DNA of 64,000 nucleotides from Escherichia coli (lineage in GTDB: Bacteria > Pseudomonadota > Gammaproteobacteria > Enterobacterales > Enterobacteriaceae), in assembly GCF_011045215.1 (NCBI RefSeq), contig NZ_CP049201.1. One strand, 5' to 3'. Positions within the stretch are counted from its first letter, which is position 1. The number at the start of each line of letters is the position of its first letter. Positions 9,174 through 60,786 of the stretch are shown in pieces. Below the pieces are notes generated by a model, which was not told the origin of the DNA, made no database searches, and saw only the letters and a program-made list of their open reading frames with translations. The position numbers were made by a program, and so were the translations under genes.

Positions 9174-9256
9174 CCCAGAGGTATTGATAGGTGAAGTCAA
9201 CTTCGGGTTGAGCACATGAATTACACCAGCCTGCGCAGATGCGCAGGTTTTTTTTT
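9174..9256 (+). ncRNA. omrB: OmrB small RNA (RygB)
   Basis: Begins CCCAGAGGTATTGATAGGTGAAG, ends in hairpin CCTGCGCAGATGCGCAGG plus T9; matches my recollection of OmrB; located between galR and aas. Confidence 0.8.
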
Positions 9257-9370: not shown

Positions 9371-9458
9371 CCCAGAGGTATTGATTGGTGAGATTATTCG
9401 GTACGCTCTTCGTACCCTGTCTCTTGCACCAACCTGCGCGGATGCGCAGGTTTTTTTT
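9371..9458 (+). ncRNA. omrA: OmrA small RNA (RygA)
   Basis: Begins CCCAGAGGTATTGATTGGTGAGATTATTCGG, ends in hairpin CCTGCGCGGATGCGCAGG plus T8; paralogue of omrB about 200 bp downstream. Confidence 0.8.
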
Positions 9459-37959: not shown

Positions 37960-38036
<77 letters not shown>

Positions 38037-39376: not shown

Positions 39377-39560
39377 CAGGGTGAGGGATAACCTCACATC
39401 CTGATTATTGACTAAGTGCGCGTTGTTCATGCCGGATGCGGCGTGAACGCCTTATCCAGCCTACAAATCATGCAAATCCAAAATATTGCAGGAGTTATGT
39501 AGGCCTGATAAGCGTAGCGCATCAGGCATTTATGCGTTTAGGGTGAGGGATAACCTCGCC
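39377..39560. repeat. BIME/RIP-like REP cluster between mltA and tcdA
   Basis: REP GCCGGATGCGGCGTGAACGCCTTATCCAGCCTAC and inverted REP GTAGGCCTGATAAGCGTAGCGCATCAGGC, flanked by two copies of GGGTGAGGGATAACCTC. Confidence 0.7.
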
Positions 39561-42524: not shown

Positions 42525-43232
42525 AAATATCCTCCGGCATAGCCGGAGGTTTTTCAAATGCGCCTATAAGGCTCTCTTACCAGCCGCGCCCTAACAGGCG
42601 CACACGATCTGACATTTGCATCCAACTTCGTTACTTACGGCCCGTAAACGGGCTGCCCGGATAGGGAATCGATAACTGCTCTCCCATTTCATCCTCTTCA
42701 AGCTGGTGCTTTATGTAATCCTGTATCTTCGCCGTGTTCTTACCCACCGTATCGACGTAGTACCCTCTGCACCAGAACTCCCTGTTCCTGTATTTGAATT
42801 TCAAATCCCCAAACTGCTCATAAAGCATCAGACTGCTTTTCCCTTTCAGATATCCCATAAAGCCGGATACGCTCATTTTGGGCGGGATCTCCACAAGCAT
42901 ATGGATATGATCTGCACAGCATTCAGCTTCAAGAATCCGTACGCTTTTCCACTCACACAGCTTTCTCAAAATACTGCCTATTGCTCTACGCTTCTCTCTG
43001 TAGAACACTTGTCTTCGGTATTTTGGCGCAAAAACTATGTGATATTTACAGTTCCATCGGGTGTGCGCTAAGCTCTTTTCGTTCCCCATTGGGACCCCCT
43101 TTTGATTTCTTGTTTGACACTTGCAGTTGCCAGACCGCAAGGTGTTTTAACAAATCAAAAGGGGTTTTAATAACTGGCTCAAAGCTGAAAGCTTTCCGGA
43201 ACCCCCAGCCTAGCTGGGGGTTTTCTGTGCAC
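42525..43232 (-). mobile_element. IS200 insertion sequence (IS200/IS605 family); ends approximate to within about 10 bp
   Basis: Encodes a 152-aa IS200-type Y1/HUH transposase; similar GC-rich subterminal hairpins at both ends (CCCCCAGC-CTA-GCTGGGGG at 43202-43220; CCTCCGGC-ATA-GCCGGAGG at 42531-42549); stem-loop sequestering the tnpA RBS; total about 708 bp. Confidence 0.85.
42631..43089 (-). CDS. tnpA: IS200 transposase TnpA (Y1 HUH transposase)
   Basis: MGNEKSLAHTRWNCKYHIVFAPKYRR...HIHMLVEIPP (HuH motif), 152 aa from the internal Met of the track ORF. Confidence 0.9.
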   Translation of the reverse strand: MGNEKSLAHTRWNCKYHIVFAPKYRRQVFYREKRRAIGSILRKLCEWKSVRILEAECCADHIHMLVEIPPKMSVSGFMGYLKGKSSLMLYEQFGDLKFKYRNREFWCRGYYVDTVGKNTAKIQDYIKHQLEEDEMGEQLSIPYPGSPFTGRK

Positions 43233-43438
43233 AAAAAAAAGCACCGCAATTAGGCGGTGCTACATTAATCACTATGGACAGACAGGGTAAATGTACAGGA
43301 AGTGAAAAAAGGTAGCTTTGCTACCATGGTCTGAATCGCAGACCAATTGCAAACACAACAACACAACATCACAACCGTAAGCCAAAAGTTCACCAGAACA
43401 CGCATTCCGATAAAACTTTTCGTTCCGGCTCAGGAAGT
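43233..43438 (-). ncRNA. gcvB: GcvB small RNA
   Basis: Minus strand reads ACTTCCTGAGCCGGAACGAAAAG...GTTGTGATGTTGTGTTGTTGTGTTTGCAATTGG...GCACCGCCTAATTGCGGTGCT plus T8; about 206 nt; divergent from gcvA. Confidence 0.9.
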
Positions 43439-51899: not shown

Positions 51900-52087
51900 A
51901 GCATCCTCTTAGGTTCAGAAGCTTAAGCACGTAATCGGTTATGTTTTCAAAAGTGCAAAACCAGCGAGTTCGGGCTTCATATCAGTGAATATTTGCCTGT
52001 CTGAAATGAACTCATGGATTCATTTTCAAATAAAAAACGCTCTGTAATATGACGGCGGTCACACTTATTAGCTGGAAGGTGACTTTA

Positions 52088-52103
52088 TGTGACTACCATC
52101 ACT
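52088..52103. promoter_or_regulatory. CRP-like site in the fucP / fucA divergent control region
   Basis: TGTGACTACCATCACT resembles the CRP consensus TGTGA-N6-TCACA. Confidence 0.4.
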
Positions 52104-55190: not shown

Positions 55191-56558
55191 TTAATCGCAG
55201 GCAACGATCTTCATTGCCAGGCCGCCGCGAGAGGTTTCGCGGTACTTGGCGTTCATATCTTTACCTGTTTCGTACATGGTTTCGATAACTTTATCGAGGC
55301 AGACGCGCGGCTCGCTGGTACGGCGCAGCGCCATACGTGCGGCGTTCACCGCTTTTACTGCCGCAATGGCGTTACGCTCGATGCATGGCACCTGGACCTG
55401 TCCGGCGACCGGGTCACACGTCAGACCGAGGTTGTGCTCCATGGCGATTTCCGCCGCGATGCACACCTGCGCCGGGCTTGCGCCTAATAGTTCTGCCAGA
55501 CCAGCCGCCGCCATTGAGCACGCCACGCCAACTTCACCCTGGCAACCCACTTCAGCACCAGAAATCGACGCGTTCATCTTATAAAGAGAACCAATGGCGC
55601 TGGCTACCAGCAGGTAACGAGCCAGTGAGTTAGCGTTCACTTCGCGGATAAACTTATCGTAGTACGCCAGCACAGCCGGGATAATCCCGCACGCACCGTT
55701 AGTCGGCGCAGTCACCACGCGACCGCCAGCGGCGTTCTCTTCGTTCACTGCCAGTGCAAACATGTTGATCCAGTCAACAACCGCCATCGGGTCAGTGGTG
55801 GTTTTATCCTGGCTGACCAGCATCCGGCGTAGTGCCGCAGCACGGCGTGGTACGCGCAGTTTGCCAGGCAACACGCCTTCGGTAGAAATACCGCGCTCAA
55901 TACCGCCGCGCATGACTTCCCAGACGTTCGCCAGGTGCTGTTCCAGCTCTTCTTTGCTGTGCAGCGCCAGCTCGTTTTTCATCATCAGGCCAGAGAGTGA
56001 CAGCCCGGTTTCCTGACAATGTTTTTGCAGATCAGCTGCTGAACTGTACGGATAAGGAACTTCAACCGGTGCGCTATCCTGCTGGCCAAAATGCTCTTCA
56101 TCAACGATAAAGCCACCGCCAATAGAGTAGTAAGTCTGACTGTAAACGACTTTATCACCCGCCAGCGCGGTAATGCGCATACCGTTTTCATGCAGAGAAA
56201 GGTTGTCGGCATGGAAGTTCATGCACTGATCAACCGGGAACTCCACTTCATGCTGACCGTTTGCCAGCATCAGGCGACCATGAGTATTCACATCCTGAAT
56301 AAAACCAGGGATGGAATCGATATCCACGGTATCCGGCAGGTTACCCGCCAGGCCCATAATAATGGCGATATCAGTGTGGTGGCCTTTACCAGTCAGAGAG
56401 AGCGAGCCGTACACGTCAACCACCACGCGGGTCACGTCTTTAAGCAGGTTACGGGCAATCAGATCGTCGGTAAATTGTTTACCCGCTTTCATTGGTCCAA
56501 CGGTATGAGAACTGGAAGGGCCAATGCCGATTTTGAAAATATCGAATACGCTAATCAT
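55191..56558 (-). CDS. sdaB: L-serine dehydratase 2
   Basis: 455-aa ORF, N-terminus MISVFDIFKIGIGPSSSHTVGPM. Confidence 0.96.
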   Translation of the reverse strand: MISVFDIFKIGIGPSSSHTVGPMKAGKQFTDDLIARNLLKDVTRVVVDVYGSLSLTGKGHHTDIAIIMGLAGNLPDTVDIDSIPGFIQDVNTHGRLMLANGQHEVEFPVDQCMNFHADNLSLHENGMRITALAGDKVVYSQTYYSIGGGFIVDEEHFGQQDSAPVEVPYPYSSAADLQKHCQETGLSLSGLMMKNELALHSKEELEQHLANVWEVMRGGIERGISTEGVLPGKLRVPRRAAALRRMLVSQDKTTTDPMAVVDWINMFALAVNEENAAGGRVVTAPTNGACGIIPAVLAYYDKFIREVNANSLARYLLVASAIGSLYKMNASISGAEVGCQGEVGVACSMAAAGLAELLGASPAQVCIAAEIAMEHNLGLTCDPVAGQVQVPCIERNAIAAVKAVNAARMALRRTSEPRVCLDKVIETMYETGKDMNAKYRETSRGGLAMKIVACD

Positions 56559-56615
56559 AGGAAATACATCGCGTTAAAACGGAGGAAGCGCCGCCCGAAA
56601 GCGGCGCGAAAGGAC

Positions 56616-57905
56616 TTAGCTGAACAGAGAGTAGAAGATTGCGGAGATTGCAATCAGACCCATCACGACAACGAATACGTTGCTGATGTGACCGCTGTAC
56701 TTACGCATTGCCGGTACTTTCTGAATTGCGTACATCGGCATCAGGAACAGGATCATCGCGATGATTGGGCCGCCCAGGGTTTCAATCATACCCAGGATGC
56801 TCGGGTTCAGGGTGGCAACAATCCAGGTCGTTACCAGCATGAACAGCGCAGTGATACGGTTCAGCTTGTTGATTTCGATAGACTTACCTTTACCACGCAG
56901 AGATTTAATCACCATACCGTTGAAGCCTTCACGTGCGCCCAGGTAGTGGCCGAGGAAGGATTTGGTGATAGCGATAATCGCGATAATCGGAGCCATCCAC
57001 GCGATAACCGGTGCGTTAAAGTGGTTAGCCAGGTAAGACAGAATCGAGATGTTCTGCTCTTTAGCCGCCGCCAGGTCTGCCGGAGTCAGGCTCAGTACGC
57101 AGCTGAAGACGAAGAACATTACGGTCAGCACCATCATGATGTGTGCGAATGCCAGGATCTTCGAGCATTTCTGTTCTGCCATATCGCCGTACTCTTCACG
57201 CTTCGCAACGGCGAAAGAAGAGATGATCGGAGAGTGGTTGAACGAGAACACCATTACCGGAATTGCCAGCCACAGGGTCATCCACAGACCGTTTCCGGTT
57301 GCAGATGCAGTGTCCAGAGACAGCGTTTCCAGTGCTGCGCCGTTCCACTGCGGGATCAGGTACAGAGCCAGCAGCATCAGTACGCCAACAAACGGGAATA
57401 CCAGAATACTCATCGCTTTAACGATCATCTGTTCACCAAAGCGAACGATGGTCATCATACCCACGATCAGGATCAGCGACAGAATCGCACGCGGCGGTGG
57501 TGTCATACCCAGCTGGTGAGACATGAAGCTTTCAACTGTATTGGTGATTGCCACGCTATAAACCAGCAGGATCGGGTAGATAGCGAAGAAGTAGAGCAGG
57601 GTAATCAGTTTACCTGCGCCAATACCAAAGTGTTCTTCTACAACCTCGGTGATGTCTTCGCCCGGGTTTTTACCAGACAGTACGAAGCGAGTCAGGCCGC
57701 GGTGAGCAAAAAACGTCATCGGGAACGCAAGGATAGCCATGATGATCAGCGGGATCATACCGCCAACACCGGCGTTGATTGGCAGGAACAGCACGCCCGC
57801 GCCGATTGCCGTGCCGTAAAGGCCCAGCATCCACATGGTGTCTGTCTTGCGCCAGGCACTACGAGAGTCTTTCGACGCAATCGTGCTGGTTTGAGTCGTT
57901 TCCAT
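56616..57905 (-). CDS. sdaC: serine:H+ symporter
   Basis: 429-aa membrane ORF upstream of sdaB. Confidence 0.96.
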
Positions 57906-58461
57906 CTATTTCTCCTGGAGGAATGCAAATAATTCAGCTTTTAGCCAGTTCAGCCCGGGAAGGTGCCTGACCGTAAAAATGAAATCTGTCTATCGGCGAT
58001 GGCTTAATCATTTACCGCCGTAATAATTTGAGGGCGGAAAGATACACACAAGTTATGTATCTATCAGTGATCTTGATCCCAAATACAATAATCTACTTGT
58101 AAGATAGATTATCCCAACGCTTTACTCTGTAAATCAAAAGTAAAAGAGAATTTAAGGGCAATATTTGCCCATTAAACGACATCTGACTTCTTCCGGGGCG
58201 CGCAATATATGTAGGTTGAACTAAAAAAATCAATACTTTTAGTTAATCATGGCGATAATTTCTTTTTCATAGCGATAAAATACGGTTTATGAAAATAGGG
58301 AAACGTTTGCGTTGCAACATAAATTGTATGACATATTAACTGTGATGATATTTGTCGCGTGAGGGTGATAAGAAACATTCATATAACAAATGAAATGAGT
58401 TGATGAGTAAGTGACCAAAAACGAGAAAACCCGGCAACAAACGTCACCGGGGGAGCGGAGA

Positions 58462-59826
58462 TTACGTGCAGATTTCGTAGCAAGGGATGTAGGCTGAGCC
58501 TGGCAACTTCATACGATGCTGGGCAACAAAACCCTGTAGCAGGTCGTCCATACGACGCATAATCTCTTTATCGCCGTTGATTTTGTAAGGACCAAACTCT
58601 TCAATGGCGCGAATACCGACTTCTTTTACGTTACCCGCCACAATACCGGAGAACGCACGGCGCAGGTCGGCAGCCAGCACTTCAACGGGTTGATCCGGGT
58701 AAAGCTTCAGATTAGCCATATTCTCGTGAGACGGCTCAAACGGCATTTGCAAATCTGGCGCAATGCGCATTGACCAGTTAAAGCTGTAAGCGTCACCGGT
58801 GTCGCGGCGATTTTCTTTCACCAGCGGCATCGATTTTTTCATCTGACGAGCGACTTCAGCGGCGTCATCAATGATGATGCGGTAATGGCGGCGCGCGTTT
58901 TCGCCCAGCGTATGTACGACAAACTCGTCCAGTACGCGGAAGTAGTCGGCGCTCTCTTTCGGGCCGGTGAGGATCAATGGTAAAACCTGATCTTTGTTGG
59001 CCGGGTTCATTAAAATTCCCAGCAAATACAGCAACTCTTCTGCCGTACCCACACCGCCAGGGAAGATAATGATGCCGTGAGCGATACGGACAAACGCTTC
59101 CAGACGTTTTTCGATATCCGGCATGATGATCAATTCGTTGACCAGCGGGTTAGGCGGTTCAGCGGCGATAATCGACGGCTCTGTCATACCAATAAAACGA
59201 CTGTCTTTGTAACGCTGCTGCGCGTGTCCGACCGCAGCACCTTTCATCGGCGCTTCCATCGCTCCCGGACCACAGCCGGTGCAGATATTCAGCTCACGCA
59301 GGCCCAGCTGGTTTCCGACGCGACGGGCATACAAATACTCATTTTCGTTAATTGAGTGACCGCCCCAGCAGACCACCATATTTGGCGCTTCACCCACATG
59401 CAGCGCGCGAGCGTTACGCAAGATGGAAAAGACCAGGTTAGTGATGTGGACGGAGTTGTCGAGATTCAGGTTGGGAAAACGAACGGTATTATGGATTTGC
59501 CCGTAAACGAAGAGAATGTCTCGCAGAACCGCGAACAAGTTGGCCTGCAAAGCGCGAATAATTCGCCCATCGACAAAAGCCTCTTCCGGGGGATTAATCA
59601 GTTCCAGCTTTACGCCGCGTTCACGGCGCAAGACGTTAATATCGAAATTTTCAAAACGAGACAGCAATTCTTTGCTGTTATCGGTCAAACTACCGGAGTT
59701 CAGTACGGCAAGTGAACAGTTGCGAAACAGTTGATAGAGGTCGCTGCTGGCGGTGCGTTTAAGCATATCCACTTCCAGCTGCGACAACATATCCATGGAG
59801 CCAAGCGGGCTAATATGTGTAATCAA
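58462..59826 (-). CDS. ppnN: pyrimidine/purine nucleotide 5'-monophosphate nucleosidase (LOG-like)
   Basis: 454-aa ORF; length and synteny match PpnN (YgdH). Confidence 0.9.
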
Positions 59827-59937: not shown

Positions 59938-60786
59938 TTATTGCCGAACCAGTCTTGTGGTCGATGGGACAAAATCGCTATTACTGCGCCACGGGTTAAT
60001 ATCCAGACCGCCACGACGGGTATAACGTGCGTAAACGCTCAATTTCTCTGGCTGGCAGAAGCGTAACAGGTCATTAAAGATGCGTTCCACGCACTGTTCG
60101 TGGAACTCGTTGTGATGGCGGAAAGAGACCAGGTAACGCAGCAGTTTTTCTCTGTCAATTTGGCGTCCACGATACTGAATTTGGATCGAACCCCAATCTG
60201 GTTGATGGGTGATCAGGCAGTTTGATTTCAGCAGGTGGCTGACAAGCGTCTCTTCCACTACTTTTTCACCACTGGTGGCATTCTCCAGATAGTCAGTAGT
60301 GAATTCATAGTTATCGATAGCGATATCCTGGTCATCAATGCAAGTGCCATTGAAATGACCTATCGGCTGGCCTTCCAGTTCATCAAGACGATATAACGCC
60401 ACGCTAACCTTACCCTGAGCGCAAGTGCTTAAGTCGCGCTCCAGCGTCTGGCGCACCTCATCCCAGTTATTAAAACGCGTCTGGTTAAAACTGTTGAGAT
60501 AGAGCTTAAAACTCTTCGACTCAATCAGATTTACGCTGGTGTAATCAAGTTCAACATGACCGACAGCGACCTGCGGCAAACCTTTCGCATTCAGCCAGGA
60601 AAGTTCATACAGCGTCCAGATATCCGTACCTTGAAAAGGCAGGTTATCCGCTTTCAGACCCAGCGGGTCGCGATTCAGGCTGCGTGGAACGCCTTGCAGT
60701 AGGCTGGCGTCATAGGTATCCCGGTAATCGGTTGATTTTCCAAGAGTCAGGCCCGCAAGTGCCTGATGGTTTGCATAAGAAGACAT
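59938..60786 (-). CDS. queF: NADPH-dependent 7-cyano-7-deazaguanine reductase
   Basis: 282-aa ORF. Confidence 0.93.

Follow-up and report, generated by a model that had tools for sequence, protein, structure and literature searches.

The ppnN–sdaC spacer of Escherichia coli lies in a row of genes that are all encoded on the minus strand (Table 1). It was analysed within a window of 64 kb, by which we mean the whole stretch of DNA under study (64,000 nucleotides). The window is 99% identical to the genome of K-12 MG1655 in reverse orientation. The K-12 equivalent of the spacer is NC_000913.3 2927673-2928228, and K-12 positions from the literature were converted as window position = 57905 + 2928229 - K-12 coordinate. 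Of 5,426 E. coli genomes with complete sequence, 5,425 contain a match to the 671 bases around the spacer. An earlier note, written from the letters of the sequence, had described an AT-rich gap of 556 bp without a credible open reading frame, and this description is accurate in its coordinates and its content. The G+C content of the spacer is 37.6%, compared with a window mean of 51.4% (SD 3.7% for windows of 556 bp), and only 0.5% of 556-bp windows reach values as low. The longest open reading frame in the spacer encodes at most 46 amino acids, and the seven small frames have no match in Pfam or NCBIfam. Neither the K-12 RefSeq record nor the top RefSeq genomes carry an annotated feature within the spacer. 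When one genome per species was scanned, 80 sdaC loci were recovered. In 76 of these 80 loci ppnN is the gene directly upstream of sdaC, and the spacers measure 436-648 bp. Long spacers are therefore the norm in Enterobacteriaceae. Published sites and signals are spread throughout the E. coli spacer, with no function assigned to the stretches between them.

Table 1. Genes, signals and candidate elements at the ppnN–sdaC locus, in window coordinates.
Feature	Position	Strand	Description
queF	59938-60786	-	
ppnN	58462-59826	-	
ppnN stop codon	58464-58462	-	one border of the spacer
ppnN–sdaC spacer	57906-58461		556 bp; flanking genes all on the minus strand
ppnN intrinsic terminator	58422-58451	-	hairpin CCCGGTGACGTTTGTTGCCGGG (58451-58430), then TTTTCTCG
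YieP site 1	58377-58391	-	ATTTGTTATATGAAT; identical in sequence to 'Site 1' in Freddolino et al. 2021 (PMC8282354)
CRP-like motif of the earlier note	58341-58358	+	TGTGATGATATTTGTCGC; single half-site between YieP sites 1 and 2
YieP site 2	58322-58336	-	ATATGTCATACAATT; exact match to 'Site 2' (PMC8282354); under the occupancy and ChIP-exo peak
PurR operator	58297-58312	.	ACGCAAACGTTTCCCT; 14/16 match to the palindrome ACGCAAACGTTTGCGT
Distal promoter P2	58204-58233	-	-35 TTGATT (58233-58228), 18-bp spacer, -10 TATATT (58209-58204)
Escherichia-only promoter-like element	58108-58137	-	TTGATT-N18-(TGG)GATAAT; putative, function doubtful
CRP site	58066-58081	.	TGGGATCAAGATCACT; centre 58073.5; 2 mismatches to the core
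Predicted proximal promoter P1	58039-58067	-	-35-like CTGATA (58067-58062), 17-bp spacer, -10 TATCTT (58044-58039)
Predicted sdaC 5' UTR from P1	57906-58032	-	~127 nt; 105-132 nt in other genera
ArcZ pairing site	57907-57918	-	CCAGGAGAAAUA; overlaps the Shine-Dalgarno sequence AGGAGA (57916-57911)
sdaC ATG	57905-57903	-	other border of the spacer
sdaC	56616-57905	-	
sdaB	55191-56558	-	

Terminator and upstream regulator sites

The part of the spacer next to ppnN contains a terminator of that gene. The stem detected by the terminator scan has nine pairs, six of them G-C, and is followed by a T run. The primary Term-seq 3' end of ygdH/ppnN is at K-12 2927709, which corresponds to window position 58425 (Adams 2021 supplement). 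The element combines what is expected of an intrinsic terminator, namely a G+C-rich hairpin, a U tract and an RNA 3' end inside the tract. A G+C hairpin with a T run follows ppnN in other genera as well, at variable positions. The remaining spacer is without any 3' end in the Term-seq table, where the next entry lies inside sdaC (Adams 2021).

Two YieP sites follow downstream of the terminator. Each 15-mer occurs once and is identical to an experimentally tested site. Site 1 is kept in E. whittamii and is not found beyond Escherichia. A condition-dependent occupancy peak has been described upstream of sdaC, from which YieP and UlaR were pulled down, with a gel shift for YieP and agreement from ChIP-exo (Freddolino et al. 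2021, PMC8282354). Scrambling both YieP sites mimicked a deletion of yieP (PMC8282354). The same work found ~20-fold more sdaC mRNA in glucose-rich defined medium than in either minimal medium or stationary phase, with expression in glucose-rich medium depending on YieP (PMC8282354). Measured from P2 and P1, respectively, the YieP sites are 125-190 bp and ~290-350 bp upstream, distances that are unusually large for a simple activator.

The earlier note had proposed a weak CRP-like motif, TGTGATGATATTTGTCGC, in the stretch between the YieP sites. Its letters are present 2 bp away from where the note had placed them, and the motif proved no better than chance. It has more than three mismatches to the core TGTGA-N6-TCACA and is missed by a scan allowing three mismatches, which itself returns 184 hits in the window compared with 220 in shuffles. 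E. whittamii has GGTGG in place of the half-site TGTGA, and sequences of other genera do not align in this region. The CRP site occupied in vivo is the one at 58066-58081.

The PurR operator was first noticed as a conserved LacI-type palindrome in an alignment of relatives. It matches the palindrome ACGNAAACGTTTGCNT at 14 of 16 positions and is the sole 16-mer in the 64-kb window within three mismatches of the PurR consensus. Its occupancy in vivo has been published, as a PurR-binding region named 'sdaC-sdaB' with the motif AGGGAAACGTTTGCGT (ChIP-chip; Cho 2011, PMC3159470 Table 1). The log2 enrichment of this region was 2.08 with adenine and 0.83 without (PMC3159470). In 57 of 77 species, a PurR-related box precedes the CRP site by 231-233 bp. 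This distance of ~22 helical turns is kept although the intervening sequence has largely diverged.

A conserved CRP site and a predicted proximal promoter

The spacer contains only one site within two mismatches of TGTGA-N6-TCACA, which is TGGGATCAAGATCACT. Each of the 77 species has a site of the form TGnGATCnnGATCACT, located 154-181 bp ahead of the ATG. CRP ChIP-seq in ETEC H10407 produced a peak at sdaC for which the listed site, AGTGATCTTGATCTCA, is the K-12 form of 58066-58081 (PMC4287617). As tabulated, the peak seems displaced by ~200 bp from the site, which proved to be a systematic offset common to the other peaks checked. The coordinates of the ChIP-seq table lie ~199 bp below those of NC_017633.1 for all three peaks checked, and after correction for this offset the sdaC peak centre falls on the CRP site. 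The site both matches the consensus and is bound by CRP. Regulation of sdaC by Crp is attributed to Hollands 2007 by later papers, and an sdaCB reporter is induced when glucose runs out. With a site bound in vivo and published Crp regulation, the earlier reading of the region as a CRP-controlled promoter and leader of sdaC is well founded.

The CRP site is followed by the core elements of a predicted promoter, P1. Between the centre of the site and the start of the TATCTT -10 there are 29.5 bp, exactly the spacing expected of class II geometry, which would place CRP at -41.5 and the predicted start at 58032 +/- 2. The alignment of 77 Enterobacteriaceae species shows an invariant spacing for the block ...GATCACTGATA...ATGTATCTTTCCGCC, and TATCTT is found in all genera shown except Kluyvera (TACATT). 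The most conserved block of the spacer spans 58095-58010, with an abrupt drop in conservation at 58031. We read P1 as a class II promoter because the spacing between CRP site and -10 is invariant and because conservation ends at the predicted +1. The conserved proximal element is probably the CRP-dependent transcription start. P1 matches 8 of 12 core positions and was missed by the promoter scan.

Published RNA polymerase data are consistent with a proximal start. The ChIP-chip region converts to 58191-57841 with a centre at ~58016, using a shift of +1978 derived from a single motif (PurR) and at a resolution of roughly +/-50-100 bp. The region is centred ~16 bp beyond the predicted P1 start in the direction of transcription, and its edge stops just short of the predicted P2 start, leaving the distal -35 and -10 outside. 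Among start-site collections, neither sdaC nor any nearby coordinate is listed in the portions of the Kim 2012 supplements that were covered, a weak negative, and sdaC is absent from the SMRT-Cappable-seq supplements.

A dyad, ATAATCTA-N9-TAGATTAT (58112-58088), is located upstream of the CRP site. It is too weak for a site of a LysR-type or other dimeric regulator. Complementarity is common for no more than its inner 3 bp (CCA/TGG), and the one compensatory change is confined to Escherichia.

The probable distal promoter and its up-mutations

A second promoter of the sigma-70 type, P2, is proposed upstream of the CRP site. It scores 9 of 12 in the promoter scan, where the count of such hits is not above that in shuffles. 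P2 has a G+C-rich discriminator, a predicted start at ~58197 and a predicted 5' UTR of ~292 nt. Its -35 is kept in Salmonella, and its -10 is conserved just loosely elsewhere. Selection in a cya mutant yielded up-mutations that map in or beside the P2 -10, namely +A at K-12 2927924 (window 58210) and +ATT at 2927928 (window 58206) (Frendorf et al. 2024). These insertions make growth on serine possible and raise sdaC expression in a cAMP-independent and partly rpoS-dependent manner (Frendorf et al. 2024). Published ChIP-chip regions of sigma-S and sigma-32 centre at ~58229-58236, on P2. Together with the rpoS tests on the mutant promoters, the published ChIP data suggest that P2 is also used by sigma-S or sigma-32.

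P2 could also be the only promoter of sdaCB, so that all transcripts would start downstream of the TATATT -10 and carry a leader of ~292 nt. The selected up-mutations sit exactly in this -10. Frendorf et al. 2024, who state that no sdaC promoter is verified, put 'the' promoter there and annotate it as a good sigma-70 match. The IPOD-HR authors likewise take the stretch directly downstream of the YieP peak as the core promoter, and no other part is included in their bait (K-12 2927790-2927975) (PMC8282354). The -35 shared with Salmonella points in the same direction. However, conservation of the distal -10 between genera is poor, in contrast to the block of CRP site and TATCTT, which is constant in sequence and spacing. 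CRP centred at +123 could not explain activation that depends on cAMP, and the RNA polymerase region leaves out the distal -10. The 'annotated TSS' cited by Frendorf et al. 2024 goes back to a start predicted by computation. Up-mutations selected in a cya background would also be expected if a weak secondary promoter were recruited to bypass a CRP-dependent one. Finally, the long leader implied by a single distal start has no conserved structure, and its folding energy in E. coli is not unusual compared with shuffles (z = -1.06). Distal initiation as the sole source of sdaCB transcripts thus appears unlikely to us. Under this scenario, the conserved block 58095-58010 would have to serve as a CRP roadblock or modulator acting on the DNA, or as an element at the RNA level.

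Escherichia carries an additional promoter-like element, TTGATT-N18-(TGG)GATAAT, that is absent outside the genus. It scores 9 of 12 in the scan and has a TG upstream of the -10. At the position of 58108-58137, other genera have CAGATTAATGGTCTA, which by eye bears a resemblance to the Lrp consensus. EcoCyc draws an Lrp site that, by a rough estimate from the text of PMC8282354, is expected in about this interval, ~200 bp downstream of YieP site 2.

The sdaC leader and its pairing with ArcZ

The earlier note had considered a long 5' UTR, regulation by the leader, and a small RNA or small protein as possible reasons for the length of the spacer. A 5' UTR of above-average length is indeed predicted, with ~127 nt from the proximal and ~292 nt from the distal promoter. 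The length of the spacer itself is owed to the terminator, the stacked transcription factor sites and the promoters.

Conserved RNA structure was sought in both leaders, and RNAalifold returned almost no pairs, at -1.2 kcal/mol for the short leader (75 sequences) and -1.4 kcal/mol for the long one (77 sequences). A search of Rfam at an E-value of 10 over 57500-58900 gave two chance-level matches (E 3.5 and 3.9), both in the sdaC coding region. Outside the spacer, Rfam identifies CsrB, GcvB and OmrA/B in the window, and within the spacer it identifies no family. The interval from the promoters to the ATG has no terminator-like hairpin, as would be required of an attenuator, and no Term-seq 3' end. 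A hairpin, CCGCC-N13-GGCGG (58037-58015), was discarded as an mRNA-stabilising stem-loop, since its left arm is upstream of the predicted P1 start and its right arm differs between genera. A small palindrome, GGGCAAATATTGCCC, is present in E. coli at 58170-58156.

The upstream open reading frames are not conserved. A frame of 25 amino acids (58011-57934) begins with ATG in 7 of 77 species and with ATT or ATC in 62 of 77. It is intact in Escherichia only, where its stop is located 28 nt before the sdaC ATG. Four Escherichia sequences differ in this frame by four synonymous and five non-synonymous changes, and no strong Shine-Dalgarno sequence was seen ahead of it. In a second frame, of 29 codons (58182-58093), one Escherichia genome shows a premature stop, and 20 differences are non-synonymous compared with two synonymous ones. 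This second frame encodes the sole serine run among the upstream frames, which is broken in relatives. A recurring frame of 10 codons (M-V/L-A-F-A-P...) was considered as a leader peptide in genera other than Escherichia and rejected, with no Shine-Dalgarno sequence seen. The frame is absent in E. coli, where its block is replaced.

The leader might act in cis as an RNA regulator, that is, as a riboswitch, an attenuator or a regulatory upstream frame that senses serine or translation status. The above-average length of the UTR, the intact 25-codon frame in Escherichia and the palindrome GGGCAAATATTGCCC in E. coli would fit this scenario. However, RNAalifold and Rfam returned neither conserved structure nor a family match for the spacer, and the leader is devoid of a terminator-like hairpin and of a Term-seq 3' end. 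The 25-codon frame lacks its ATG in most species, and the 29-codon frame is broken in one Escherichia genome and has almost only non-synonymous changes. We regard cis-acting RNA control as highly improbable. The leader regulation put forward in the earlier note finds no counterpart in structure, Rfam match or terminator, and the only post-transcriptional input documented in the literature read is ArcZ at the ribosome binding site.

An independent gene for an unannotated small RNA or a small protein is even harder to reconcile with the data, and we give it hardly any credence. Nothing speaks for such a gene other than the large extent and the AT-richness of the gap. It would be unannotated in K-12 and the top RefSeq genomes and without a match in Rfam, Pfam or NCBIfam. 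The sole terminator, and the lone Term-seq 3' end, belong to ppnN, and the promoter scan found no promoter-like site on the plus strand within the spacer. The conserved blocks of the spacer are DNA-binding sites that are already accounted for, and no open reading frame is conserved. Neither the small RNA nor the small protein envisaged in the earlier note is borne out. Overall, no part of the spacer qualifies as a riboswitch, an attenuator, an independent small RNA gene or a small protein gene.

Post-transcriptional control by ArcZ is well documented. The published pairing of ArcZ with sdaC covers -13 to -2 or -3, and overexpression of ArcZ cuts sdaC mRNA by more than 50%. The seed of K-12 ArcZ, UUUCCCUGG, pairs with CCAGG-A-GAAA at 57918-57907 at an energy that is also reached by 179 of 500 shuffled targets. 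The stretch TTCCTCCAGGAGA is conserved across genera. Duplex energies with the full-length processed ArcZ were discarded as dominated by the terminator hairpin of ArcZ. We list sdaC as an ArcZ target because of the published experiments and not because of duplex energy. The pairing site takes up the last ~12 nt of the spacer and therefore offers no explanation for the spacer length.

Discussion

The ppnN–sdaC spacer is almost certainly a conventional control region with multiple inputs that conceals no gene. Very likely, it serves the transcriptional and post-transcriptional control of sdaCB, which encodes an L-serine:H+ symporter and L-serine deaminase II, from two promoters located behind the ppnN terminator. 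Transcription of ppnN would end at its intrinsic terminator, beyond which ~200 bp of AT-rich DNA would present two activator sites for YieP and a PurR operator. P2 would come next, followed ~120 bp further by the CRP site placed 29.5 bp ahead of the TATCTT -10 of P1. P1 would provide catabolite-repressed expression that sets in upon exhaustion of glucose, with a transcript from ~58032 carrying a 5' UTR of ~127 nt without conserved structure. A route independent of CRP is also called for, because sdaC mRNA rises ~20-fold in glucose-rich medium, where cAMP-CRP is expected to be low. The sites for YieP, PurR and Lrp together with P2 might tune sdaCB to nutrient richness and growth phase. The insertions that suppress cya would strengthen P2 and so bypass the need for cAMP-CRP. 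At the level of the mRNA, the Hfq-dependent small RNA ArcZ would pair at the ribosome binding site and repress translation.

A more elaborate arrangement would turn the spacer into a length-constrained nucleoprotein switch, looped or wrapped by Lrp, that chooses between the distal and the proximal promoter. The constant distance of 231-233 bp between the PurR operator and the CRP site may be a trace of such a complex. The distal promoter, with inputs from YieP and PurR, recognition by sigma-70, sigma-S or sigma-32 and a leader of ~292 nt, would then answer to nutrient richness, and its transcripts would pass through CRP-bound DNA. A smaller variant would be a recently acquired and translated 25-codon upstream frame in the proximal leader of Escherichia. 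We treat these proposals as speculative and rather improbable. The preferred reading remains two promoters with stacked regulator sites.

Several features assigned to P1 are known from class II CRP promoters of the galP1 and melR type. A near-consensus CRP site with GATC-N2-GATC overlaps the -35 region, the -35 is weak (CTGATA), the -10 deviates from the consensus (TATCTT), CRP is bound in vivo and expression is catabolite repressed. In contrast to these promoters, the -41.5 position at sdaC is a prediction, and P1 lies below a long, length-constrained region with sites for YieP, PurR and probably Lrp as well as a second promoter. Tandem-promoter operons that combine CRP and Lrp and have long AT-rich upstream regions include the paralogous tdcABCDEFG, dadAX and gltBDF. 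The sdaCB region resembles this type in joining a CRP carbon signal with nutrient-state regulators far upstream in AT-rich DNA, and in serving an operon for a transporter and a deaminase. However, the set of regulators at sdaCB is a different one, with YieP, of the GntR family, and PurR. No operon-specific activator that binds an inducer is known for sdaCB. Repression by Hfq and ArcZ at the ribosome binding site also affects STM3216 and mutS. At sdaC, the seed of processed ArcZ covers -13 to -2 over the Shine-Dalgarno sequence, and the interaction is the published one without any difference.

Much of this regulation is already published, and the spacer is in this sense ordinary. All of its components fall into familiar classes, namely an intrinsic terminator, operators of the GntR and LacI types, a CRP-activated promoter and a target site of an Hfq-dependent small RNA. 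The published evidence covers inputs to sdaCB from CRP, YieP, PurR, Lrp and ArcZ, including the binding of YieP, PurR and CRP, the dependence on CRP and cAMP, the up-mutations, ArcZ repression and the 3' end at the terminator. What is new is the comparative case, from 77 Enterobacteriaceae species, for a conserved spacing between the CRP site and TATCTT. From this and the published data we infer the core elements and the start of P1, the division of labour between two promoters and the mechanism of the suppressors.

The comparison of 77 species and the ChIP data point to a deeply conserved class II CRP promoter ~165 bp downstream of the distal -10 favoured in the literature. If P1 holds true, the insertions that suppress cya represent the activation of a secondary promoter. 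This would be a modest refinement of sdaCB regulation, which bears on the physiology of serine toxicity and utilisation as well as on the engineering of strains for serine production.

Organization of the ppnN-sdaC spacer

The distance between the PurR box and the CRP site upstream of sdaC is nearly fixed in most of the Enterobacteriaceae species compared. Among the 77 species compared (one genome each, loci L002-L081), the two sites are separated by 231-233 bp in 57 species (window 58312-58066) and by exactly 232 bp in 45. The DNA between them is conserved only in patches, and length differences of up to 200 bp occur in the parts of the spacer flanking this segment. Together, the near-constant distance, the patchy intervening sequence and the variable flanks suggest that the spacing may be constrained by helical phase or DNA wrapping, at about 22 turns.

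Several elements within this segment differ between Escherichia and the other genera. A block aligned at about 58173-58155, ATGGTAGCCTTCGCGCC, is common to most genera other than Escherichia, which carries the palindrome GGGCAAATATTGCCC in its place (58170-58156). The block doubles as a 10-codon open reading frame (M-V/L-A-F-A-P...), for which no Shine-Dalgarno sequence was seen in the non-Escherichia genera. Closer to the CRP site, a promoter-like element, not conserved in the other genera compared, has a predicted start about 20 bp upstream of that site. The inverted repeat next to the CRP site carries one compensatory change (C-G to T-A) within Escherichia, and only its CCA...TGG is kept in other genera.

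A second CRP-like site, TTTAGTGATACCAGTCACATAG, is present in five Citrobacter loci (L020, L027, L034, L041 and L043), where it lies directly past the ppnN terminator, about 473-475 bp ahead of the sdaC start codon. It is near-consensus, with one core mismatch. Salmonella and Enterobacter have weaker forms, and the E. coli counterpart is a remnant with three mismatches (58358-58373).

Features elsewhere in the window

The window was searched for Rfam RNAs at the gathering score, and all matches outside the spacer are expected in this region of K-12. The two CRP core sites found by scanning should lie in the fucA-fucP spacer, judging by K-12 gene order, and we take them to be probably the known CRP sites of the fuc regulon. 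The stretch holding them has the lowest G+C content of the window (35.4%).

Features located in the spacer and elsewhere in the window
Feature	Position	Strand	Basis or remark
Promoter-like element, extended -10, TTGATT-N18-(TGG)GATAAT	58137-58108		Escherichia only
Inverted repeat, 8-bp, ATAATCTA-N9-TAGATTAT	58112-58088		Adjoins CRP site
Two CRP core sites, 1 mismatch	52048-52063, 52088-52103		CRP core scan
CsrB	61619-61978	+	Rfam
GcvB	43233-43438	-	Rfam
STnc490	43099-43222	-	Rfam
OmrA/OmrB	9174-9255, 9371-9458	+	Rfam
tRNA	37963-38036	-	Rfam
ES036	39464-39506	+	Rfam

Published coordinates

The peak centres given by Haycocks et al. 2015 (Table 1) lie 185-200 bp below the listed sites in NC_017633.1, as seen in all three ETEC H10407 peaks checked (loci L083 and L084), and reuse of these coordinates calls for a corresponding correction. 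At the other end of sdaC, the Term-seq table of Adams 2021 has an entry for a primary 3' end 25 nt before sdaB, at K-12 position 2929551. This position corresponds to about 56583 in the window, inside the sdaC-sdaB junction (56559-56615), and implies that part of the operon's transcription terminates between sdaC and sdaB.
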